Source of the DNA: Erysipelotrichaceae bacterium
Lineage (GTDB): Bacteria; Bacillota_I; Bacilli_A; Erysipelotrichales; Erysipelotrichaceae
DNA length: 32,000 nucleotides
Reading direction: 5' to 3'
NCBI GenBank assembly: GCA_963676105.1
Contig: OY781039.1
Span: 1,290,001 to 1,322,000 of the forward strand
Shown: piece after piece, positions 8,716 to 32,000 of the stretch
Layout of the letters: each line of letters starts with the position of its first letter
Numbering within the stretch: position 1 is the stretch's first letter
Position numbers and translations under genes: made by a program
Notes under the pieces: model-generated
Told to the model about the DNA's origin: nothing
What the model saw: only the letters and a program-made list of their open reading frames with translations
The model's database searches: none

Positions 8716-9254
8716 TCCTTTGGGTTGAGTAAACCATAAATATAATGGTCTTCCCACACTCCATTAATCTGTACATTCTTACGGTTGAGTCCTTCTTGGA
8801 TAAAACCGTTTTTTTCTAAGACTCTTTGTGAACCATAATTATCGACTAATACACCTGCTTCAATTCGGTGAAGTTTTAATTCTTTAAAGGCATAGTCACA
8901 AATTAGTTTTACAGCTTCACTTGTATAGCCTTTTCCTTGATAGGCTTCATCAATGCGATAACCCAAAAAACATGAGTTAATGCTTGGTACATCTAAGATT
9001 TCAAAAAGTGATACCCAAGCAATGAGTTGATTATCATGTGTAAACATACAAAAACTATGCGCTAGATTATCTTTGTGAGCTTGTATTTGTGATTTAACAA
9101 ATGCTCTCTTACCTTCTAGTGTAAAGAAAGCTTCAGATCTTGTGGGAGATGTCTTTGTGAAGAAGGCTCTATTTCTTAGTTCAAAATCTAGTAGTGCTTG
9201 TGTATCTTCTTCTGTGATGAGTTTTAAATAAAATTCTTTTGTTTCAAATATCAT
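8712..9254 (-). CDS. GNAT-family N-acetyltransferase (RimJ/RimL-like)
   Basis: 180-aa. Acetyl-CoA-binding core YQGKGYTSEAVKLICDYAF, followed by the HRIEAGVLVDNYGSQRVLEKNGF pattern. Confidence 0.8.
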   Translation of the reverse strand: MIFETKEFYLKLITEEDTQALLDFELRNRAFFTKTSPTRSEAFFTLEGKRAFVKSQIQAHKDNLAHSFCMFTHDNQLIAWVSLFEILDVPSINSCFLGYRIDEAYQGKGYTSEAVKLICDYAFKELKLHRIEAGVLVDNYGSQRVLEKNGFIQEGLNRKNVQINGVWEDHYIYGLLNPKD

Positions 9255-9259
9255 AGCTC

Positions 9260-9604
9260 TTATCCTTTATAGGGTTGTTTATCAAAAGGAATTTCACCAA
9301 AACCTTCAATACTATTTCGATAGACATAGGTATAGGCTTGTTGACCACTTTTAAGATTAACAGTCATACGATTATAGAGTTGTCCTACTCCTTCAATAAT
9401 ATCGAGTTCTCTTAAAACCTGATGATTAATTTGATAGACTTCACCTTTAACTTTATTATTCTGTTTTGCGATTATTCCCGGGTAATAACCTAAGTCAAAC
9501 ATTTGAAAGCCTTCAAGTTCATCTAAACCTAAAAAATGTGAATCCTTTAAAACATGTTCACGGCTATTACCTTTTAGTAGTGTTCCATAAACAAATACTT
9601 TCAT
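9260..9604 (-). CDS. Gamma-glutamylcyclotransferase-like (AIG2/GGACT family) protein
   Basis: N-terminal VFVYGTLLKG (YGTL motif). 114-aa, the typical size. It lies 5 nt upstream of the GNAT gene. Confidence 0.7.
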   Translation of the reverse strand: MKVFVYGTLLKGNSREHVLKDSHFLGLDELEGFQMFDLGYYPGIIAKQNNKVKGEVYQINHQVLRELDIIEGVGQLYNRMTVNLKSGQQAYTYVYRNSIEGFGEIPFDKQPYKG

Positions 9605-22540: not shown

Positions 22541-23395
22541 ATGAACATTGCAGTCCTGAGTGGTAAAGGTGGCACAGGTAAAACATTGGTTTCAGTTAAT
22601 TTAGCTGCAGCGAGTGATAAGGCCAATTATATTGATTGTGATGTAGAAGAGCCAAATGGTGCTCTTTTTTTCAAACCGAGCAATATTAAGCAGACTGATA
22701 CCCTAGTAAAAATCCCTCAAATTAATCATGATTTATGCGCGTCATGTCGCAAGTGTGTCGATTTTTGTCGTTTTAATGCTATAGCCTTCGTAGGTAATAA
22801 ACCTTTAGTATTTGAAGAGATTTGTCACTCTTGTGGTGGTTGTTCACTTGTATGTCCACAAAAGGCTATTACAGAAAAAGATAAAGTGATTGGTCACATT
22901 GAAGAAGGTTTCAGTGACAATGTTTTTATTAATAGTGGTTTGCTCAACATTGGACAAGAATCAGGTGTACCGATTATTAATCAACTCTTATCTAAGATAG
23001 ATCATCATAATTTAAACATTATTGACTGTCCTCCTGGTAGTTCATGTTCAGTGATTGAAAGTATTAAAGATGCTGATTATTGTGTACTTGTTGCTGAACC
23101 AAGTATCTTTGGTGCGCAAAATTTAGAGATGGTTTATGACCTTGTTAAGTTATTTAATAAAAAACATGCTGTTGTATTAAATAAAACAATGGACATTGAA
23201 AATCCATCAGAGAACTTTTGTATTGAAAAAGATATTCCAATTCTTGAAAAAATACCCTTTGATCAAAGCTTAGGGAAACTTAATTCAGATGGTTTAATCG
23301 CTGTAAGAGAAAATAGTCACTACAAAAACTTGTTCTCATCATTGTTGAAAAAAGTACTAAAGGAGGCATCTAATGAAACAGTTACTCATCCTTAG
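22541..23395 (+). CDS. MinD/ParA-class P-loop ATPase with an inserted 2x[4Fe-4S] ferredoxin domain
   Basis: Deviant Walker A SGKGGTGKT, CDVEEPN, and two CxxCxxCxxxC clusters (CASCRKCVDFC, CHSCGGCSLVC). Confidence 0.8.
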   Translation: MNIAVLSGKGGTGKTLVSVNLAAASDKANYIDCDVEEPNGALFFKPSNIKQTDTLVKIPQINHDLCASCRKCVDFCRFNAIAFVGNKPLVFEEICHSCGGCSLVCPQKAITEKDKVIGHIEEGFSDNVFINSGLLNIGQESGVPIINQLLSKIDHHNLNIIDCPPGSSCSVIESIKDADYCVLVAEPSIFGAQNLEMVYDLVKLFNKKHAVVLNKTMDIENPSENFCIEKDIPILEKIPFDQSLGKLNSDGLIAVRENSHYKNLFSSLLKKVLKEASNETVTHP

Positions 23396-24224
23396 TGGTA
23401 AAGGTGGTACAGGTAAAACTACCGTCGCAAGTGCTTTTATTCGCTTACTAGATGCGAAAGCTTTTGCGGATTGTGATGTTGATGCACCAAACTTGCATCT
23501 CGTTTCTCATTTCGATCATCCTCCTCAAGTCAAAGATTATTATGGTTTAGATAAAGCACATATTAATTCTGAAACTTGCATATCATGTGGTCAATGTGTT
23601 AGTCATTGTCGATTTGATGCGATTGAAGTTAGCGATATTTATAAAGTCAATCCATATTTATGTGAAGGATGTGCTGTTTGTGAAATGGTATGTCCAACAA
23701 AAGCCATCGAAATGAAAGAAGCTGTGGATGGTCATATTGATTTATATAGAAACCATTCAACTTTCTCAACAGCTCAACTTAAAACAGGTAGTGGTAACTC
23801 TGGGTTATTAGTTACTGAAGTGAAGAAACAATTAGAAGAAAACACATCTGCAGATATTGCGATTATCGATGGTTCCCCAGGTATTGGATGCCCTGTCATC
23901 GCCTCATTAAATGCCATTGATTTGACACTAATCGTAACTGAACCATCACTCTCTGGAATCAGTGATATGAAGCGTATTATCACAACCGCTAAACGATTTG
24001 AGACAAAAATCGCAGTATGTGTAAATAAATACGATAATAATCTTCAAAACACAAAAGCCATTGAAACTTTCTGTAAAGAGAATGACTTAAGTTTTACAGG
24101 ACGTATTCCTTTTGATAAAAAAGCTATACAAAGTATAAATACATCTTCTACTATTGTAGACATAGACTGTATATCAGGCACTGCCGTTAAAGATGTCTTT
24201 CAGAAAACATTAGCGCTCTTATAA
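23373..24224 (+). CDS. Second MinD/ParA-class P-loop ATPase with a ferredoxin domain (paralogue)
   Basis: SGKGGTGKTT, CDVDAPNLH, CISCGQCVSHC, CEGCAVCEMVC. Overlaps the previous gene by 23 nt. Confidence 0.8.
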   Translation: MKQLLILSGKGGTGKTTVASAFIRLLDAKAFADCDVDAPNLHLVSHFDHPPQVKDYYGLDKAHINSETCISCGQCVSHCRFDAIEVSDIYKVNPYLCEGCAVCEMVCPTKAIEMKEAVDGHIDLYRNHSTFSTAQLKTGSGNSGLLVTEVKKQLEENTSADIAIIDGSPGIGCPVIASLNAIDLTLIVTEPSLSGISDMKRIITTAKRFETKIAVCVNKYDNNLQNTKAIETFCKENDLSFTGRIPFDKKAIQSINTSSTIVDIDCISGTAVKDVFQKTLALL

Positions 24225-24262: not shown

Positions 24263-25259
24263 AATCAATAATTAAATTCGAATCATTATTTGTTTTAACT
24301 TTATGCTCTAACCAATTGTATTGCGAAGATAATTTACCAAACCAGGCTGCACTTTGCACTTGAAGAATAAATGCTACCGTTATGATTAAGGCAGTATCAG
24401 CACCAAATGATGTCATTGCTAGACCCAAAGCAATAGATAGATTACGCATAACTGAACCATACACTAATGCATAGCCATCGTAACGGTTAAAGAATAATCT
24501 AACGACAATTGTACTTACCAAAAAATTAATGACATAGAAAATAAATGGTATCAATATTATCTTTAATAGTAAATCAGGACGTGATGTAATGGCATTCGCC
24601 TTCATGCTTATACTAGAAAAGATAATAAACAACATTGGCCAAACACTTAATGCTGGGAAAATGGGTTTAATACGTGTCTTATACTCCTCTTCACTCACAA
24701 ACTTAAGTATAACTTGATAAGTAATGCCTCCTAAAATCATTGGAAGAATAACAATCTGAGCAATCGTTAAGAATGTTTCTAATAAATCAATTTCAACCAA
24801 TGTCCCCAAAGCTACAGATAAATAAACAGGTGCTAAAACAGATCCAACGATAAGACTTAACGCTGTGATTTTAATCGCTGCTGCCACATTACCTTTATTC
24901 AACATCGTCCACGATATTGTCATACCACTTGTTGGAAATAGGGCAATCATAAAGATACCTGCAAACAATTCAGGACTGTCACTTAGTAGTGCTTTCCCAA
25001 AAAAATAAGCAAATAATGGAATAAATATAAAGTTGAGTATACTTGTATAAATCACAACTTTAATATGTGATAAATCTACTGCTTCTTTGATTTTAAAACC
25101 GACCATAGTTGGATAGATCATAAAGAAAGTAAATATAAGAATATAATTCTTTAAAAAACTAAAGTTCATGTTTAGTCCTGCAACAAAACCAATGACCAAT
25201 ATAATTGGAATAACAATAACTAGATTTTTTGATGGGTAATAAAAAATTTTCTTAAGCAT
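24261..25259 (-). CDS. ACR3/SBF-like (BART superfamily) transporter, cysteine-free
   Basis: 332-aa, about ten TM segments. FFMIYPTMVGFKIKE resembles the ACR3 MMYPP..K motif. The whole protein contains no Cys. Confidence 0.6.
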   Translation of the reverse strand: MLKKIFYYPSKNLVIVIPIILVIGFVAGLNMNFSFLKNYILIFTFFMIYPTMVGFKIKEAVDLSHIKVVIYTSILNFIFIPLFAYFFGKALLSDSPELFAGIFMIALFPTSGMTISWTMLNKGNVAAAIKITALSLIVGSVLAPVYLSVALGTLVEIDLLETFLTIAQIVILPMILGGITYQVILKFVSEEEYKTRIKPIFPALSVWPMLFIIFSSISMKANAITSRPDLLLKIILIPFIFYVINFLVSTIVVRLFFNRYDGYALVYGSVMRNLSIALGLAMTSFGADTALIITVAFILQVQSAAWFGKLSSQYNWLEHKVKTNNDSNLIID

Positions 25260-25272
25260 TTTTCCTCCATAA

Positions 25273-25292
25273 TTATGAACATATGTTCATAA
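25273..25292. promoter_or_regulatory. Perfect 20-bp palindrome TTATGAACATATGTTCATAA between the promoter and RBS of the ACR3-like gene
   Basis: All 10 positions pair. It lies 14-33 nt upstream of the ATG at 25259. Confidence 0.6.
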
Positions 25293-25304
25293 CACAATGG
25301 CTTA

Positions 25305-25332
25305 ATTATAGAAGAACAGATAAAAAAGTCAA
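25305..25332 (-). promoter_or_regulatory. Near-consensus promoter TTGACT-16-TATAAT of the ACR3-like gene
   Basis: On the minus strand, TTGACT is at 25327-25332 and TATAAT at 25305-25310. Confidence 0.55.
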
Positions 25333-25380
25333 TTAAAATGCTTAATGCTATATACTCTGCATGAAAAGTTATTGATTCTA

Positions 25381-25414
25381 ATTAAAAATCCACGGTTTTA
25401 ATACCGTGGATTTT
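25381..25414 (-). terminator. Intrinsic terminator after the Abi gene
   Basis: AAAATCCACGGT-N6-ACCGTGGATTTT, a 12-bp stem. The T-run follows on the minus strand. Confidence 0.65.
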
Positions 25415-25490
25415 CACCCAGCATACACTGGATATCTCGTAGCTATAATATATCACCATGGACAATTATTTTCAATCGATTTGAGAAATA

Positions 25491-26474
25491 TTAGTATTTA
25501 TTGTAATTAATATTTTTCTTGTTTTTGGTAGCCAGATACTCTAAGTCATTTAAATCTCTTATACCCATATTTGAACGCACATAATCAAATGATGTAATAT
25601 TTAATTCATTTTGCAAATTAATTAGGTTTGACCTCAACTGAAGAACTAATTTTTCATAATCATTTGAATTCATAAAGTACTTCAAAGAAACTAACAAATC
25701 TACTAATTGCTGTTGTGGATTGTATTTAAAATAACGTCTATCTCCTAAAATATATTCTTTGAATGGTTGTTTGAATCGAGGAGATTTGGATTTAAAAAAA
25801 ATTACTCTCTCATTATGTGCGCACGAGTTTCTAACTTTTCTAATTAGATGCAACATTGATAGTAAAAGTGAGTAATAATTTTTACCTCTTTTATCTTTTA
25901 TATTATATAACTCACACAATGCATCCAATAATTGTGGTTTCGATATCTCTACTACACTTATTAAATCCCCAAATGTTATTAATTTTGTAAATATCCACGC
26001 TGGTACTCTTCCATACTTTTTTGAATAATGAAAATTATACTCATTTGTTGACTTATCAATTGTATGAAAACACTTTGAAATTACTCTAATAATATCTTGA
26101 GTATCCTTATTGGAATTATAAGCTTGAACATCATACCATTCAACCTCTTTAGGATTAATGAAATCTAATTTATACCCAACCAAATTTCTAATTTCCTCTT
26201 CTATTCTTGTAATAACTTGCAAAAGTATAATTCTCAAATCATCATCAAATAGTTTTAAACTTACAAAAGATTCGATAGTAATACCACCAATATAAATATG
26301 ATCATTATTTAAATCTTTTCCTTGTATAAATGGCTCTTTGTATGCATTTATTAAATTAAAATAACCATACTTGATAAGAAATTCTTTATGCTTACTGCCT
26401 TCACATCTTATTTTTTTCTTATCTCTAAGATACTTCATTTGTGTATTGAAAGTTTTAAATGGTTTTTCATTCAT
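25491..26474 (-). CDS. Abi_2 (AbiD/AbiF-like) abortive-infection family protein
   Basis: 327-aa. Conserved KVRNSCAHNERV motif (RNxxAHxxR) and the overall AbiD/F-like helical pattern. Confidence 0.7.
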   Translation of the reverse strand: MNEKPFKTFNTQMKYLRDKKKIRCEGSKHKEFLIKYGYFNLINAYKEPFIQGKDLNNDHIYIGGITIESFVSLKLFDDDLRIILLQVITRIEEEIRNLVGYKLDFINPKEVEWYDVQAYNSNKDTQDIIRVISKCFHTIDKSTNEYNFHYSKKYGRVPAWIFTKLITFGDLISVVEISKPQLLDALCELYNIKDKRGKNYYSLLLSMLHLIRKVRNSCAHNERVIFFKSKSPRFKQPFKEYILGDRRYFKYNPQQQLVDLLVSLKYFMNSNDYEKLVLQLRSNLINLQNELNITSFDYVRSNMGIRDLNDLEYLATKNKKNINYNKY

Positions 26475-26524
26475 ACTGCGCCACCCTTATATATTATTTA
26501 TATACACTAAATTATGAAAGTCCG

Positions 26525-26555
26525 TAAAAAAGAATGGCACTTTCGCACCATTCTT
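26525..26555 (-). terminator. Intrinsic terminator after the lipoprotein gene relic
   Basis: The minus strand reads AAGAATGGTGC-GAAA-GTGCCATTCTT followed by TTTTAC. Confidence 0.6.
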
Positions 26556-26568
26556 CATTTACTATTAA

Positions 26569-27222
26569 TTATTCCCAAAGATTAGCATTACCATAACGTG
26601 CATCAAGTTCTGCTGAGAACCAACGACCATTCATAACGTTAGAGATAACAAATTCTTTTAATCCATCAGGAATTGTAGTATCTGCATCCATCGCATCCAT
26701 GATTGCTTCATAAGATGTAGTATCATCCATTAATTCAACAATCGCAGATGTATCATCTGAATCAAATACCATTGATACAGTATTATCTACAGTGAATGCA
26801 TCCCAAGTAGCAAGTTCACCACCATTTGGATCACCTGTATCATTCAGAAGTGTTCCAAAAACAGATAAATCTATTTCATCTTTTTCAATCAAATGACTTA
26901 AGTCCTATAACTCATTATTATCAATTAATGTTGAATAAAAGCCACCCGACAACAACATCACATCGAAATACTCATCATATGTCTGTGATGGAAAGTTAAC
27001 AATCTCAACTTCTACATGAGGATATCTATTCTGAAAACTCTTAACAACTTCATTTAATATAGTTTCTTCTTCCCCTGAATCTACCTTTATATGATCATAG
27101 ACATCAAAGTCATAGTTCTTCTCAAAGTTATCAGTATTAATAACATTTTGACTACATCCACTCAATAACAAAAAACTTAGGATGACTGATATCTTGATTG
27201 TTCTATGACCTATCAATTTCAT
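26569..27222 (-). pseudogene. Lipoprotein with a solute-binding-protein-like N-terminus, split by one in-frame TAG (26905-26907)
   Basis: Lipobox LLLSGC. KSFQNRYPHVEVEIVNFPSQTYDEYFDVMLLSGG resembles the N-terminus of ABC substrate-binding proteins. The two ORF-track pieces are in the same frame: ...DNNEL*DLSHLIEKDE.... The total of ~217 codons is too short for a full binding protein. Confidence 0.5.
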
Positions 27223-27264
27223 ATCCTAAGTTTAGCATATACAAATTTTATAGTTTCAGAGTTA

Positions 27265-28452
27265 TTATCTACTTTTATCGAAATTGACATCCAACCATAA
27301 TTGCAATTCATTACGATTTTTTATGCCATTTTTTATTAATATCTCAATAATATCTTTCCCTGAAACTATAATGATTGGTAACTTTTCGTTGACTACTTCT
27401 TTATATGCATCAGCATTAACATATGAAGTGGTAACCATAATACCAAATTCTCTGTGTTGGATTCTTGAGACTAGTCTTGACATAATCTTTACATCAACAC
27501 TTGAAGAAGTTTTAGGATGAAAATATTTTGCTTCAACAACAAATGTTTTCTCAATATTATTCTTTGAATTTCCAATTCTATAGGTTCCTATTGCATCTTT
27601 ACCATGATCCTTAAAATAACTAGTACCTTCTATATCTATAATATTTTGATCCATGAACAAAACAATTTGAATTGCGCATTTTTCAAATGCGTACCCATCA
27701 TTAAAATATTCAGCTAATAAAAGCAACATTTTGCCTTCTTCAGTATTAAAATCTGGAATTTGTTCTATTTTTGATCTATGAAGAATTGGATTCTTTTCTG
27801 TAATTAGGGGAGAATATTTCCCTTTATTAATCCATTCTAACCAAACTTTAGGTGCATGTTCACTTGTATTCGCATGTCCAATTAAAACATCGTTCAACCA
27901 TTCACGAGGTATTTGTGGGATATCTAAAATTGTAAAAATAGATTTGTAATTTTGATATCGCCCTTCTGAGTTTTGTGCCCAAACAATCTCTAAAGTTTCA
28001 TTAATGTTAATGTTTTTAGATCCTAAAACTGCTAATCCTAAGAACATAATATCTCGACCGGCATACTTTTTAAAAATAAAAACTGGTGGTATATTTTCTC
28101 GTTTACCATTCATTAGTTTTTCAAATGAATCTGATAAAAAAGTGTTTCCTTTAAATTTCGTGTTATGTATAGGGTTCCCAGCAGTTCTATTGTCTCCCCA
28201 ATAAGTAAAAGTTCCTAAGGTTCTGTCAATTTCATCGCGCCATTCTAGCTCTTCACCACTTGTATAAATGCATATATAAGCAAAACCAGGTTTTTTAACA
28301 TTATATTTTTTCTTCCGAAAGCCTCCTGAATTTTGAACTCCAAGAAGTTTTGTCAAAACTTCACCACTTATATTCTTTGAATCATTTGAACAATATACTG
28401 CATCAACAATCAAATCTGTATCAGTAAGTTTGCTAAAATCTACTCTATGCAT
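27265..28452 (-). CDS. Restriction endonuclease: C-terminal Mrr-like PD-(D/E)xK domain plus an N-terminal DNA-reader domain (possibly SRA/PUA-like)
   Basis: The C-terminal segment GKDAIGTYRIG...FVVEAKYF fits D...EAK, followed by GIMVTTS (Mrr_cat-like). ATG at 28452 has GGGGGAA 5 nt upstream, so it is preferred over 28482. The gene is divergent from a C5-MTase gene. Confidence 0.65.
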   Translation of the reverse strand: MHRVDFSKLTDTDLIVDAVYCSNDSKNISGEVLTKLLGVQNSGGFRKKKYNVKKPGFAYICIYTSGEELEWRDEIDRTLGTFTYWGDNRTAGNPIHNTKFKGNTFLSDSFEKLMNGKRENIPPVFIFKKYAGRDIMFLGLAVLGSKNININETLEIVWAQNSEGRYQNYKSIFTILDIPQIPREWLNDVLIGHANTSEHAPKVWLEWINKGKYSPLITEKNPILHRSKIEQIPDFNTEEGKMLLLLAEYFNDGYAFEKCAIQIVLFMDQNIIDIEGTSYFKDHGKDAIGTYRIGNSKNNIEKTFVVEAKYFHPKTSSSVDVKIMSRLVSRIQHREFGIMVTTSYVNADAYKEVVNEKLPIIIVSGKDIIEILIKNGIKNRNELQLWLDVNFDKSR

Positions 28453-28546
28453 TGTAGTTCCCCCAATTTTATAAGTAAGCATGTTTCATTTTTTAATAAA
28501 ATATTTATATACAAGATATAACTGTATTTTTTATTGATAATTAAAG

Positions 28547-28566
28547 TTTATCAAGATCTTGATAAA
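28547..28566. promoter_or_regulatory. Perfect 20-bp palindrome TTTATCAAGATCTTGATAAA in the divergent R/M promoter region
   Basis: All 10 positions pair. The right half supplies the TTGATA -35 box of the MTase promoter. An extra TTGATAA half-site is at 28534-28540. Confidence 0.6.
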
Positions 28567-28587
28567 TTAAACAAATAATTCTAATAT
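28559..28587 (+). promoter_or_regulatory. MTase promoter TTGATA-17-TAATAT, placed for a leaderless or near-leaderless transcript
   Basis: The -10 ends 8 nt before the A of the ATG at 28595. No Shine-Dalgarno lies between them. Confidence 0.4.
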
Positions 28588-28594
28588 TGATATT

Positions 28595-30265
28595 ATGAAA
28601 AATAAAAAATATACTGTTATAGATTTTTTTTGTGGTGCCGGAGGATTTTCAACAGGGTTTGACTTAAATGGTTTTGAGGTAATTATGGGTATTGATAACT
28701 GGGCGCCTGCCATCAAAACTCATAACGCAAATTTTAATCTAGAAGATACACCAATAGATGTACTTAAATTTAATGACATCAACAAAATATTTGAATTACC
28801 AGATACGGATATTATTATCGGTAGTCCCCCATGTGTTGTTTTTTCAACATCAAATAAGGGGGGGAATTCAAATAAGCTAGATGGTTTAAAACTTATTAAG
28901 ACATATTTAAAAGTAATAGCAGTAAAGAAATATAAAAATAATTCAAAATTAAAAGCTTGGCTTATGGAAAACGTTCCCAATGTGGGTAAATATATGAACG
29001 ACACATATACTTTTAGTGATTTGGATTTAACTGAATGGGCAATTTCTAGTGGATATAATCCAGAAATGGTAGCTCTAGACCTTAAGAATAAACAACATAT
29101 TGTTAATTCCTACAATTATGGTTCTGTTCAGAAGCGTTTAAGATATATTTGTGGTGAGATAATTGAATCAAATAAATTTCCAGAATTACATCCAATTGTA
29201 AATAAAAAAACAGTAAACTCGATTTTTAAAGATTTTCCAAAACCAAATGAAAAAAGTTTGACAAAATTCGAAAATATAGTTGATCCTAATTACACAAGTA
29301 TAAAAATTTCAAATTCATCGCTACACGATCATTTTTATGATACTGGTGTTTATAAAGTTGAATGGAAAAAAGCAATGGAAGCTAAACTTAATCACCCTTA
29401 CATGGGTAAAATGTCTTTCCCAGAGAATCTAGACAAAGAAGCTAGAACAATTATGGCAACCATGTCAGCGAGTAGTAGAGAATCCATATTAATAGAATCT
29501 GAAATTAGCAGAATTGGTGATGGACAATATAGATTATTAACTGTAAGAGAAGCCGCAACAATTATGGGTTTTCCAATTAATTATCAATTTTATGGAAATG
29601 AATCTTCAAAATGGAGACTTGTTGGTAATGCTGTAGTTGTACAACTTTCATATACTTTAGCAAAATCAATAAAGAGTAATTTAGGTTTGAATTTTCAAGG
29701 ATCTAAGATGAAAAAACTAGATTTTTCTGACTTCATATTTTTTGATAATTTTGAATTAAAGGATTTTAATAATCCACCTAAAAGAAATCCAAATAGTATA
29801 TTTCGTCTCCATCCAATAAAAGCAGGAAATATGACCGTAGAATTAACGAATAGATTATTAGTTAAATATCAAGACAAAACAATTTCAAAAAAATGGAAGA
29901 TAGTTATTAATGTTGGAACTGGGAAAAAAGCCAGACATATACTTATACATGAGAATCATAAGCTTGAAGCAGAGGAATTACTATTAAAACATTCACCTAT
30001 TTTTTTGGAAGAATTAAACAATGACAAAGTTATTCACAAATATACTGATTCACATTTTAACAATCAAAACAGAGAATATGGCTATATATCTGAATCAAGA
30101 ACACATCCATATAATCTTGTATACAAAATCAAAAATCATATTGAGAATCAGACAGACAATACAATTTATCTTAATCCAGAATTAGAATTATTCAAAATTA
30201 AAGCAACGATGCCACTTCATCAATTGATGGCTATTTATGCACTGGGTAAACTTTTGTACAGTTAA
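28595..30265 (+). CDS. DNA (cytosine-5)-methyltransferase with a ~200-aa C-terminal extension of unknown function
   Basis: Motif I DFFCGAGGFSTGF, IV GSPPCVVFS, VI MENVPN, VIII GSVQKRLRY, IX RLLTVREAATIMGFP, X VGNAVVVQL. Residues ~360-556 lie beyond motif X. Confidence 0.85.
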   Translation: MKNKKYTVIDFFCGAGGFSTGFDLNGFEVIMGIDNWAPAIKTHNANFNLEDTPIDVLKFNDINKIFELPDTDIIIGSPPCVVFSTSNKGGNSNKLDGLKLIKTYLKVIAVKKYKNNSKLKAWLMENVPNVGKYMNDTYTFSDLDLTEWAISSGYNPEMVALDLKNKQHIVNSYNYGSVQKRLRYICGEIIESNKFPELHPIVNKKTVNSIFKDFPKPNEKSLTKFENIVDPNYTSIKISNSSLHDHFYDTGVYKVEWKKAMEAKLNHPYMGKMSFPENLDKEARTIMATMSASSRESILIESEISRIGDGQYRLLTVREAATIMGFPINYQFYGNESSKWRLVGNAVVVQLSYTLAKSIKSNLGLNFQGSKMKKLDFSDFIFFDNFELKDFNNPPKRNPNSIFRLHPIKAGNMTVELTNRLLVKYQDKTISKKWKIVINVGTGKKARHILIHENHKLEAEELLLKHSPIFLEELNNDKVIHKYTDSHFNNQNREYGYISESRTHPYNLVYKIKNHIENQTDNTIYLNPELELFKIKATMPLHQLMAIYALGKLLYS

Positions 30266-30284
30266 ATAATTTTTATATTATTTT

Positions 30285-30293
30285 TGATATAAT
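30285..30293 (+). promoter_or_regulatory. Extended -10 element TGATATAAT upstream of the ParB-like gene
   Basis: It lies 22 nt upstream of the ATG at 30316, with the AAGGGGGT RBS in between. Confidence 0.4.
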
Positions 30294-30315
30294 CAACTAA
30301 GGGGGTACTTAAATC

Positions 30316-31686
30316 ATGAATAGAGAGAATAGAATAGAACAAATAAAAAAAATTACTTCTAATGATGAGCTGAAATTTGGAAAAGAAGAAATTGTATGGG
30401 AAGACTCACTGCAATCGATGGATGTTCGCAAAATTCCACTACAGTATTTGATTTACAACAAATATAATGGTCGTATTTTAACTCGAACTAAATCATTAGA
30501 AGCACAAGGAAAAGTAATTGATGCAGAGACTGATACTGGGAAATTAATTATAGAAAAATTACTTTGGGAATCTAAACCGGAAAGAAACAAAACAACAAAA
30601 AACGATTTAGAAAAATATGGTCAAAAAAGAATAGGAATTGTCACTGCTGATGGAATCATTATTGATGGTAACAGAAGAGCAATGTTACTAAATCAAATTG
30701 ATAAATATGATTATTTCAAAGCAATAGTCTTACCTGTCAGATTAGATGAAAATCCTATTGAAATAGAAAAGCTTGAAACTTCTTATCAAATGGGTGAAGA
30801 CGAAAAGCTTGGATACAATGCTAATGAAAAATATCTAAAAGCAAAAACCTTAAGGGAACGCGGGGTTCCAATCGACACAATAGCTAATTGGATGGGTGAA
30901 TCAAAAAGTGAAATCGAAAAGTATTTACGTACTATGGAAATCATGGATGATTATCTCGACTTCTTTAGTTACAACAATATGTATACTCAACTAGATGGTC
31001 GTGAAGATTTATTTTTATCGGTCGAAAAATGGACGAATAATTTTTATGGTTCAAATTCCGCAAAGGCTTTTGATGGATATAGTGATAACGACGTTGATGA
31101 CCTAAAAGCAATTTGTTACGATTACATTAGATCTGATATAGATGGTAAAACTTTTAGAAATATTGCAGAAGGCAATCAATCATCACATGTTTTTGGAGAC
31201 CAAGAATTGTGGAGAGATTTTTCCGATAAACACTTTGAATTTATTCAAGAAATTAAAGATAGTGAATCAAAAATTGATTTAAATGTTCCAGATGTAGAGA
31301 AAAGTCTAAAAAGTAGAGATAACAAGTTCAAAGTAGACTCTTTAGACTATTTGCAAGAAAACCTTGATAATCAACGGAGTAGGCTTGCAAATAAAAAATA
31401 TAGAGATGAACCATCAAAATTGGTTTCTAAAGCACTAGATGCAATAGAAATTGCTTCTTCTAATAAAAACTTATCAAATCAAGAAACTGTTGATAAAATT
31501 GAAAAATTAAATACTATAACAACTAATCTACTTAAACAAAAGTCTATAACAAAATTACTTGATCATATTTACTCGCTATTAGATGGATTAGATTTTTCAG
31601 GTATTAATGATAATGATTTAGATGGAATTGAATCTAAATTAATATCAATACAAAAATTAGCATATAAATACTCGAAAGAAATCTAA
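30316..31686 (+). CDS. ParB/Sulfiredoxin-like N-terminal domain protein with a long helical C-terminal region
   Basis: KIPLQYLIYNKYNGRI ... IGIVTADGIIIDGNRRAMLL matches the ParB-N/ParBc pattern (I.L..N.R ... y.iiDG.hR..A). The remaining ~330 aa is unassigned. Confidence 0.55.
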   Translation: MNRENRIEQIKKITSNDELKFGKEEIVWEDSLQSMDVRKIPLQYLIYNKYNGRILTRTKSLEAQGKVIDAETDTGKLIIEKLLWESKPERNKTTKNDLEKYGQKRIGIVTADGIIIDGNRRAMLLNQIDKYDYFKAIVLPVRLDENPIEIEKLETSYQMGEDEKLGYNANEKYLKAKTLRERGVPIDTIANWMGESKSEIEKYLRTMEIMDDYLDFFSYNNMYTQLDGREDLFLSVEKWTNNFYGSNSAKAFDGYSDNDVDDLKAICYDYIRSDIDGKTFRNIAEGNQSSHVFGDQELWRDFSDKHFEFIQEIKDSESKIDLNVPDVEKSLKSRDNKFKVDSLDYLQENLDNQRSRLANKKYRDEPSKLVSKALDAIEIASSNKNLSNQETVDKIEKLNTITTNLLKQKSITKLLDHIYSLLDGLDFSGINDNDLDGIESKLISIQKLAYKYSKEI

Positions 31687-31688
31687 TA

Positions 31689-32000
31689 ATGATTGATTCA
31701 TTTTATACACTATCTTTAACAGAGGATTCATTTTTAAAAATTGAAGGTGAAACAGATATATTACTTAATAATCCTAGATTGAAGATTTCATTAGCTCGAT
31801 TGCACGCTAACTACGAAGATGATTACATTTTAATACCTGTTATCGATAATAATTCAGAGTATTTAATTAGAGAAATTTCACAATTGTTATTAAAGTTTAA
31901 TTACAAATCCAAGCTTGACTCTAGCATTGATGAAATATTAGATAATTTTAGAAACGAAATGGAAAATTTTGAAATTTTTTCTAAAAAAGCTTTGGATATC
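31689..32000 (+). CDS. 5' part of an unknown ORF, truncated by the window edge
   Basis: The ATG lies 2 nt after the ParB-like stop (TAATAATG). I read 104 codons with no stop to position 32000 (MIDSFYTLSLTEDSFLKIEGETDILL...). It is absent from the ORF track because it has no stop in the window. Confidence 0.5.
   Translation, partial: MIDSFYTLSLTEDSFLKIEGETDILLNNPRLKISLARLHANYEDDYILIPVIDNNSEYLIREISQLLLKFNYKSKLDSSIDEILDNFRNEMENFEIFSKKALDI

Follow-up and report, generated by a model that had tools for sequence, protein, structure and literature searches.

The 32,000-nucleotide stretch of Erysipelotrichaceae bacterium contig OY781039.1 analysed here (referred to below as the window, with positions counted from its first letter) carries on its minus strand, at 27265-28452, a gene that sequence comparison identifies as an intact Type IIM/IV member of the known MspJI/AspBHI family, whose members are restriction endonucleases that depend on DNA modification, lying back to back with a gene for a C5 cytosine DNA methyltransferase. 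This methylase is not the cognate partner of the nuclease, because it opens a four-gene cassette that was found without an AspBHI-like gene in 83 loci and because AspBHI-like nucleases elsewhere adjoin unrelated methylases. Most probably, the intact nuclease and the autonomous cassette represent two independent defence layers within a single island of low guanine-plus-cytosine (GC) content, compatible with one another through non-overlapping sequence contexts. A puzzle raised in 2010 is cleanly exemplified by this locus, namely that nucleases dependent on 5-methylcytosine (5mC) are often linked to C5 methylases, and the apparent paradox of a 5mC writer beside a 5mC reader has been in the literature since then, together with a standard explanation that is not yet fully tested. 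The survey of related loci sharpens this puzzle: the linkage is strong, being found in 13 of 20 nuclease clusters, yet promiscuous in the type of methylase. The nuclease itself appears to be one more, probably active, AspBHI-family enzyme with altered residues in its specificity loop, and the more novel parts of the locus are the cassette, a widespread candidate for a new methylation-based defence system, and the unexplained enrichment of AspBHI-like genes beside varied C5 methylases.

The modification-dependent nuclease

27265-28452, minus strand: AspBHI/MspJI-family modification-dependent restriction endonuclease, 395 amino acids (Pfam, PADLOC and PDB matches), laid out as an SRA-like 5mC reader at about amino acids 1-215, a linker, and an Mrr_cat PD-(D/E)xK nuclease at about amino acids 250-375
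28459-28464, minus strand: Shine-Dalgarno-like GGGGGA, 6 nucleotides 5' of the ATG at 28452, supporting the 395-amino-acid start

The preliminary description of this DNA, made from the letters and their translations, had proposed an N-terminal SRA/YDG-like reader that flips 5mC as in MspJI and AspBHI, joined to a C-terminal PD-(D/E)xK module of the Mrr_cat type, and both proposals were borne out by profile searches. The N-domain matched Pfam RE_AspBHI_N (PF18062) at E 3.1e-54 across amino acids 26-212 (profile positions 2-185 of 185), the C-terminal module matched Mrr_cat (PF04471) at E 4e-10 across amino acids 252-372, and the whole protein matched PADLOC mREase_II (‘Type II methyl-directed restriction enzyme’) at E 1e-125 over profile positions 1-393 of 393. 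Sequence comparison with proteins in the PDB returned all three of the enzymes whose structures the same description had named for comparison with the N-domain, namely AspBHI (4oc8; E 1.5e-75, amino acids 9-388), LpnPI (4rzl; E 1e-37, N-domain) and MspJI (4f0p; E 1e-16, whole nuclease). The family is a common one, with 635 homologues recovered at E <= 1e-10, of which the nearest is 70% identical and the named ones are from Clostridia metagenome-assembled genomes (MAGs).

The residues expected of a functional reader and nuclease are all present. The N-domain of AspBHI is SRA-like, with the flipped 5mC modelled between D71, Y82 and D85, each of which is essential for activity, and its nuclease motif is D282-X20-E303-A-K305 (PMC3946040). 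In the window nuclease, D73, Y84 and D87 align to the three pocket residues and the catalytic D286...E307-A308-K309 has the same D-X20-EAK spacing (21 residues) as its AspBHI counterpart, with both sets of residues invariant in 19 aligned homologues and corresponding to positions at which mutation destroys AspBHI activity (PMC3946040). The AspBHI pocket is structurally equivalent to D474/Y483/S486 of UHRF1 (PMC3946040), and the SRA motif mapping drawn by eye in the preliminary description (EWRD... and TYWGDN against the SRA pattern D...YTGxGG) agrees with this equivalence residue for residue.

The minus-strand open reading frame (ORF) extends over 27265-28482 and encodes 405 amino acids when counted from its first ATG. 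The start at 28452 (MHRVDF..., 395 amino acids) was preferred over the ATG at 28482, because the GGGGGA element lies 6 nucleotides upstream of it and because homologues and the PADLOC family profile begin aligning at residues 1-3 of the shorter form; the inspected letters upstream of the ATG at 28482 show no GGGGGA-like element. The strings FAYICIYTSGEELEWRDEIDRTLGTFTYWGDNRTAG, KFKGNTFL, IPPVFIFKK, FVVEAKYF and GIMVTTS were all found in this ORF, and both it and the ORF of the neighbouring methylase are intact, with no premature stops.

Compared with AspBHI (Azoarcus sp. BH72; PDB 4OC8), the window nuclease is of equal length and has the same two-domain layout, pocket residues and D-X20-EAK motif, but it carries many substitutions across the full-length alignment, including Q-N in place of the minor-groove specificity residues S41-R42. 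The asparagine at the position of AspBHI R42 is shared with LpnPI (Legionella pneumophila; PDB 4RZL), whose N-domain is also homologous. Because S41-R42 is replaced by Q-N, the context preference of the window nuclease is probably not the YS(5mC)NS of AspBHI, and were it also to differ from those of other existing enzymes, the nuclease could be of interest for mapping 5mC and 5-hydroxymethylcytosine (5hmC) by methods based on the MspJI family. By homology, the SRA-like N-domain would flip 5mC or 5hmC into the D73/Y84/D87 pocket, the loops around this pocket would read a few flanking bases, and the Mrr-type PD-(D/E)xK domain (D286, E307, K309), acting within a homotetramer as in other members of the family, would cleave the two strands 3' of the modified base at a set distance, which is N12/N16 in this family. 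AspBHI, MspJI and LpnPI are each active alone in vitro (PMC2938202, PMC3946040), and the window nuclease is probably active as well.

These observations bear on whether the locus could be a classical Type II pair, in which the nuclease would read an unmodified sequence and the adjacent methylase would protect that same sequence. A sequence-specific reader within an ordinary Type II pair was the alternative offered in the preliminary description, and it is not supported, the N-domain being an AspBHI 5mC reader with an intact pocket. All characterised members of the MspJI/AspBHI family need a modified cytosine (PMC2938202, PMC3946040, PMC3874153), and the methylase has conserved partners of its own, i.e. 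a ParB-like protein, an SNF2 protein and a NOV_C protein. What speaks for such a pair comes down to adjacency and to divergent orientation, which many Type II systems share, and MspJI was itself first mis-annotated in this way (PMC3874153). Rather than a conserved two-gene unit of restriction endonuclease and methylase, the surveys found 83 nuclease-free cassette loci, and nucleases accompanied by at least four other types of methylase or by none. A classical Type II pair is highly improbable on this evidence, since the nature of the reader domain and the methylase's own partners in effect exclude it.

The methylase and its four-gene cassette

28595-30265, plus strand: C5 cytosine DNA methyltransferase, 556 amino acids, cassette gene 1 (Pfam DNA_methylase 5.3e-42, TIGR00675 2.7e-33)
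30316-31686, plus strand: ParB/Noc/KorB-like protein, 456 amino acids, cassette gene 2 (AlphaFold2 and Foldseek; GNRR motif, helix-turn-helix region)
31689-32000, plus strand: N-terminus of an SNF2-family ATPase, 104 codons, the ORF leaving the window (collinear alignment to SNF2 proteins)

From the side of the methylase, metagenomes were searched with the 456-amino-acid ParB-like protein and the recovered loci, 83 in total, were annotated. The gene order C5 methylase, ParB-like, SNF2 and NOV_C was complete in 45 of these, which come from diverse bacteria, and the remaining loci were either cut by contig ends or had the methylase more distant from the ParB-like gene. An AspBHI-like gene was present in none of the 83 loci found in this way (417 kb of flanks, with 25 loci having 1.5 kb or more to either side). 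The cassette is autonomous of the AspBHI-like nuclease, because its gene order is kept in the 45 complete loci and no AspBHI-like gene accompanies it in any of the 83. Among its hosts is a Hellea MAG (Alphaproteobacteria). The preliminary description had treated the nuclease as paired with a C5 methyltransferase; the adjacency to such an enzyme stands, as the Pfam match listed above attests, and the cognate two-gene pairing does not, the methylase being the first gene of a cassette known from 83 nuclease-free loci.

The methylase is transcribed divergently from the nuclease, at a distance of 142 bp from the preferred nuclease start and 112 bp from the first ATG, and consists of a catalytic domain (amino acids 1-370) followed by a conserved 190-amino-acid C-terminal extension. 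Its catalytic motifs are all invariant, with the PCV of motif IV being the consensus in 25 homologues. The occurrence of PCV in place of PCQ was considered as a possible sign of decay and rejected, as PCV is the consensus of the subfamily. The methylase looks functional, because all C5 methylase motifs are conserved and PCV is the family consensus. In the AlphaFold2 model (predicted local distance difference test, pLDDT, 85.8) the methyltransferase domain alone matched the PDB; Foldseek matches covered about the column count of the catalytic-domain span, and no fold was returned for the extension (amino acids 370-556). The core matched HaeIII, HhaI and DNMT1 at approximately 20-24% identity, at which no target is inferable from the solved structures.

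The ParB-like protein had no Pfam, NCBIfam or PADLOC family match, and its homologues, of which there are at least 1587, are all unnamed or labelled hypothetical, some being named from candidate-phyla-radiation MAGs. A PDB sequence search with its profile likewise gave no significant match, and structure comparison alone identified the fold. With the AlphaFold2 model (pLDDT 89.7) as query, the top 26 Foldseek matches in the PDB were all members of the ParB family (Noc, KorB, ParB, Spo0J and pNOB8 ParB; probability 0.96-1.0), the best being Noc 7nfu at E 1.4e-4. A GNRR motif (G118-N119-R120-R121), invariant in 26 homologues, falls where ParB has its arginine patch. The modelled structure places the gene at 30316-31686 in the ParB/Noc/KorB superfamily, with a predicted nucleoside triphosphate-binding fold bearing the GxRR patch and a helix-turn-helix. 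For the third gene, amino acids 38-104 of the fragment within the window align to amino acids 38-104 of the SNF2 proteins at two surveyed loci, L021 (E 4e-08) and L026 (E 6e-10), and to judge from other loci, a full SNF2 gene and a NOV_C gene would be present at this locus.

The cassette does not appear to correspond to a described system. NOV_C (formerly DUF3883) is a PD-(D/E)xK nuclease domain that occurs in HmaA, an SNF2-NOV_C fusion defending against T4 (PMC11232893), and also in modification-dependent enzymes of DUF3427-DUF3883 composition (PMC6765204). No system model in PADLOC, Pfam or NCBIfam was matched by the cassette: PADLOC v2 returned no model for the ParB-like protein, generic matches for SNF2 (ZorD, DpdE, DrmD) and for NOV_C (PD-T4-1, TmtA, PDC-S36), and no Hma model among the matches listed for the cassette proteins. 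Literature searches for the combination of methylase, ParB-like, SNF2 and NOV_C proteins returned only Hma and BREX-related systems with other components. Hma resembles the cassette in tying an SNF2 ATPase and a NOV_C nuclease to a DNA methylase (PMC11232893). However, HmaA is a single SNF2-NOV_C polypeptide whereas the two are separate genes in the cassette, HmaB is a DUF1156 protein whereas the methylase of the cassette belongs to the C5 enzymes of PF00145 and is extended at its C-terminus, and HmaC is a DUF499 ATPase, in whose place the cassette has the ParB-like protein; the composition of the cassette is thus not that of Hma. On the basis of its domain content and gene order, the cassette is probably an undescribed methylation-based restriction-like system.

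Two further observations were made among the cassette loci. One ParB-like homologue (P0212, 749 amino acids) has a PF00145 segment joined to the ParB-like part, which is either a true fusion or an artefact of a frameshift or of gene calling. An artefact would lie where the methylase stop and the ParB-like start frequently overlap, and a real fusion would provide a Rosetta-stone link between the two proteins. Separately, the Hellea sp. contig (L027:13652-14884, minus strand) encodes a 410-amino-acid HNH_2 protein 1.3 kb downstream of an AspBHI-free cassette and on the opposite strand, which may be another modification-dependent nuclease in the same accessory position.

Linkage of AspBHI-like genes to C5 methylases

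From the side of the nuclease, loci were collected from genomes, metagenomes and viral contigs, scanned with an iteratively built C5-methylase hidden Markov model, and grouped at 95% identity into 20 clusters. A C5 methylase lay within 5 kb in 13 of the 20 clusters and in 11 of the 12 clusters at >= 52% identity to the window nuclease, in most cases on the same strand and upstream, often in translational coupling, the two genes overlapping by 4-22 bp or being separated by 14-19 bp. These frequencies reproduce the report of Zheng et al. in 2010 that about half of MspJI-family genes lie next to C5 methylases (PMC2938202). The linked methylases belong to several contexts: Sau3AI/MutH-like restriction and methylase genes, often with Vsr; HaeIII-like restriction-modification (R-M) genes with a second short methylase; an M-Eco47II fusion with a methylase/HATPase pair; and, as in the window, the long methylase of the four-gene cassette. 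This last arrangement recurs in L006, L007/L021 and L026, where the cassette sequences are divergent (34-40% identity) and the nuclease lies downstream on the same strand, whereas in the window it lies divergently upstream. Linkage to C5 methylases is both recurrent and promiscuous in methylase type, a pattern that argues for a general tie to 5mC-writing systems and not for cognate pairs.

Additional genes were seen at some of these loci. A Vsr gene lies directly upstream of the methylase/nuclease pair in one (L004:8215-8718) and directly upstream of the nuclease itself in another (L005:9511-9984), echoing the MspJI-Vsr-M.MspJI arrangement, and in a third (L115:4615-6117 and 9208-9594) the neighbouring C5-methylase system includes a HaeIII-type methylase with a fused NUDIX domain as well as a separate NUDIX gene. 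The MspJI locus itself (MspJI, V.MspJIP Vsr, M.MspJIP) resembles the window in that a C5 methylase adjoins an Mrr-type nuclease of the modification-dependent kind, and it is its Vsr gene that has counterparts in L004 and L005. However, the window showed no Vsr gene, and M.MspJI is reported to be inactive whereas the window methylase, a member of a conserved family, keeps every catalytic motif.

The reading that we consider probable, in which nuclease and cassette are two independent layers, carries the consequence that the target of the methylase must not form the preferred context of the nuclease. The methylase would write 5mC in a context that the nuclease rejects, allowing the two to coexist; the cassette would mark self by 5mC and presumably restrict unmarked DNA via SNF2 and NOV_C; and the nuclease would attack foreign patterns of 5mC or 5hmC, such as those of modified phages, of phages with C5 methylases of their own, or of DNA from differently methylating hosts. 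Family membership, intact motifs, cassette autonomy and recurrent linkage are direct observations; nuclease activity, disjoint specificities and complementary roles are inferred. Compatibility through non-overlapping contexts has been argued for LpnPI and M.LpnPI (PMC2938202), for Type IV enzymes generally (PMC3874153) and for modification-dependent restriction endonucleases next to GAT5mC methylases (PMC6765204). The self/non-self logic that the preliminary description had presented as new is therefore not so, as the linkage was reported in 2010 (PMC2938202) and compatibility of contexts has since been treated in reviews (PMC3874153, PMC6765204). The LpnPI locus is comparable in that the nuclease sits near a complete C5-methylase R-M system with which its compatibility is ascribed to non-overlapping contexts (PMC2938202), but the neighbour in the window is a four-gene cassette and not a two-gene Type II R-M system. 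A functional analogy is provided by the island of pEFER that combines BREX with BrxU (GmrSD), where a methylation-based multi-gene system is adjacent to a Type IV nuclease and complementary protection from phages with unmodified and with modified DNA has been demonstrated experimentally (PMC8565348). The proteins are unrelated, since that island pairs an N6-adenine methylase with GmrSD, whereas the window pairs a C5 methylase with an SRA-Mrr nuclease, which may be complementary by analogy.

Three points weigh against the reading as two independent, compatible layers. The linkage is far above what would be expected of a loose defence island and is often translationally coupled, which hints at a tighter functional tie. 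At three or more further loci this type of cassette adjoins an AspBHI-like gene, though arranged differently, and this may reflect a specific association. Finally, neither the methylase target nor the nuclease context can be inferred, with the methylase only about 20-24% identical to solved enzymes. A bolder proposal, which can be offered only tentatively, is that AspBHI-like nucleases are selected to ride with 5mC-writing systems, such that nuclease and cassette form a two-layer 5mC immunity in which the cassette marks self and restricts unmarked DNA and the nuclease polices foreign 5mC, perhaps under co-regulation through a palindromic promoter.

A still closer integration would give 5mC-writing systems, the cassette included, the nuclease as a functionally coupled fifth component or as a back-up effector, co-regulated via the divergent promoter and its palindrome and kept by selection in the company of C5 methylases. 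The linkage in 13 of 20 clusters, and in 11 of 12 of the closer ones, mostly with the methylase upstream on the same strand and with overlaps or gaps below 20 bp, is in keeping with this, as are the two arrangements in which cassette and AspBHI-like gene are adjacent, with divergent cassettes, across the window, L006, L007/L021 and L026, and the perfect 20-bp palindrome between the two genes in the window. However, all 83 loci found via the ParB-like protein have the cassette without the nuclease, AspBHI-like nucleases accompany methylases of unrelated kinds or have none within 5 kb (7 of 20 clusters), AspBHI, MspJI and LpnPI need no partner for activity in vitro (PMC2938202, PMC3946040), and the palindrome is not kept at other cassettes. 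Such integration is considered unlikely, and the reading as two independent layers is retained.

The intergenic palindrome and the surrounding island

28547-28566, no strand assigned: perfect 20-bp palindrome TTTATCAAGATCTTGATAAA, in the intergenic region from which the nuclease and methylase genes diverge
25491-26474, minus strand: AbiD/Abi_2 abortive-infection protein (Pfam Abi_2 3.2e-37, PADLOC AbiD 1e-34)

The palindrome includes AGATCT/GATC and shares sequence with -35-like TTGATA boxes placed back to back, and when 260-bp upstream regions were shuffled, 1 of 1000 had arms of at least 10 nucleotides. In the regions upstream of 50 cassette methylases, palindromes were not in excess of those in shuffles (the mean arm observed was 5.6). 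It is possible that the palindrome is an operator or a methylation-sensitive promoter element. The idea of a conserved operator for the ParB/KorB-like protein was considered and is not supported as a general feature, there being no conservation upstream of the other cassette methylases.

The palindrome also enters into a further explanation of the locus, according to which the methylase does create sites for the nuclease and the conflict is neutralised, either because one partner is inactive or because the nuclease promoter is silenced by methylation. Precedents exist for both routes, as no activity was shown for M.MspJI (PMC2938202) and M.PcaRCI silences the promoter of the antagonistic methyl-dependent restriction endonuclease PcaRCII (PMC8989522), and the shared 142-bp divergent promoter region in the window holds a palindrome with cytosines (AGATCT). 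However, both ORFs are intact, all catalytic residues are conserved and there are no premature stops, the nuclease has a good ribosome-binding site, there is no sign that the methylase targets the palindrome, and the palindrome is not kept at other cassettes. A neutralised conflict appears quite improbable in light of these features, and coexistence of two active layers through non-overlapping contexts is again the preferred reading.

The nuclease and cassette lie within a stretch of distinct composition. From approximately 25 kb to the end of the window the GC content is 26-30%, as against mostly 30-37% before this point and around 32% for the window as a whole. This low-GC stretch contains AbiD, the AspBHI-like nuclease and the cassette, and the rest of the window consists of ordinary chromosomal genes. 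These features point to 25000-32000 being a horizontally acquired defence island. There do not appear to be any tRNA or integrase genes within the window. A prophage origin was considered and is unsupported, as a scan of 2.9 million viral contigs yielded just 2 AspBHI-like loci and the window lacks tRNA genes.

Two small orphan ORFs on the minus strand separate AbiD from the nuclease, one (26905-27222) having a lipoprotein-type signal start (…LLLSGC…) and the other (26569-26892) having no family match. These ORFs, which together occupy 26569-27222, may be remnants of a disrupted gene or small accessory genes. Just outside the island, at 22541-24224 on the plus strand, there is a tandem pair of MinD/ParA-like P-loop proteins into which cysteine motifs of the 4Fe-4S ferredoxin type are inserted, recognised by translation only, which bear no relation to the question of the nuclease.

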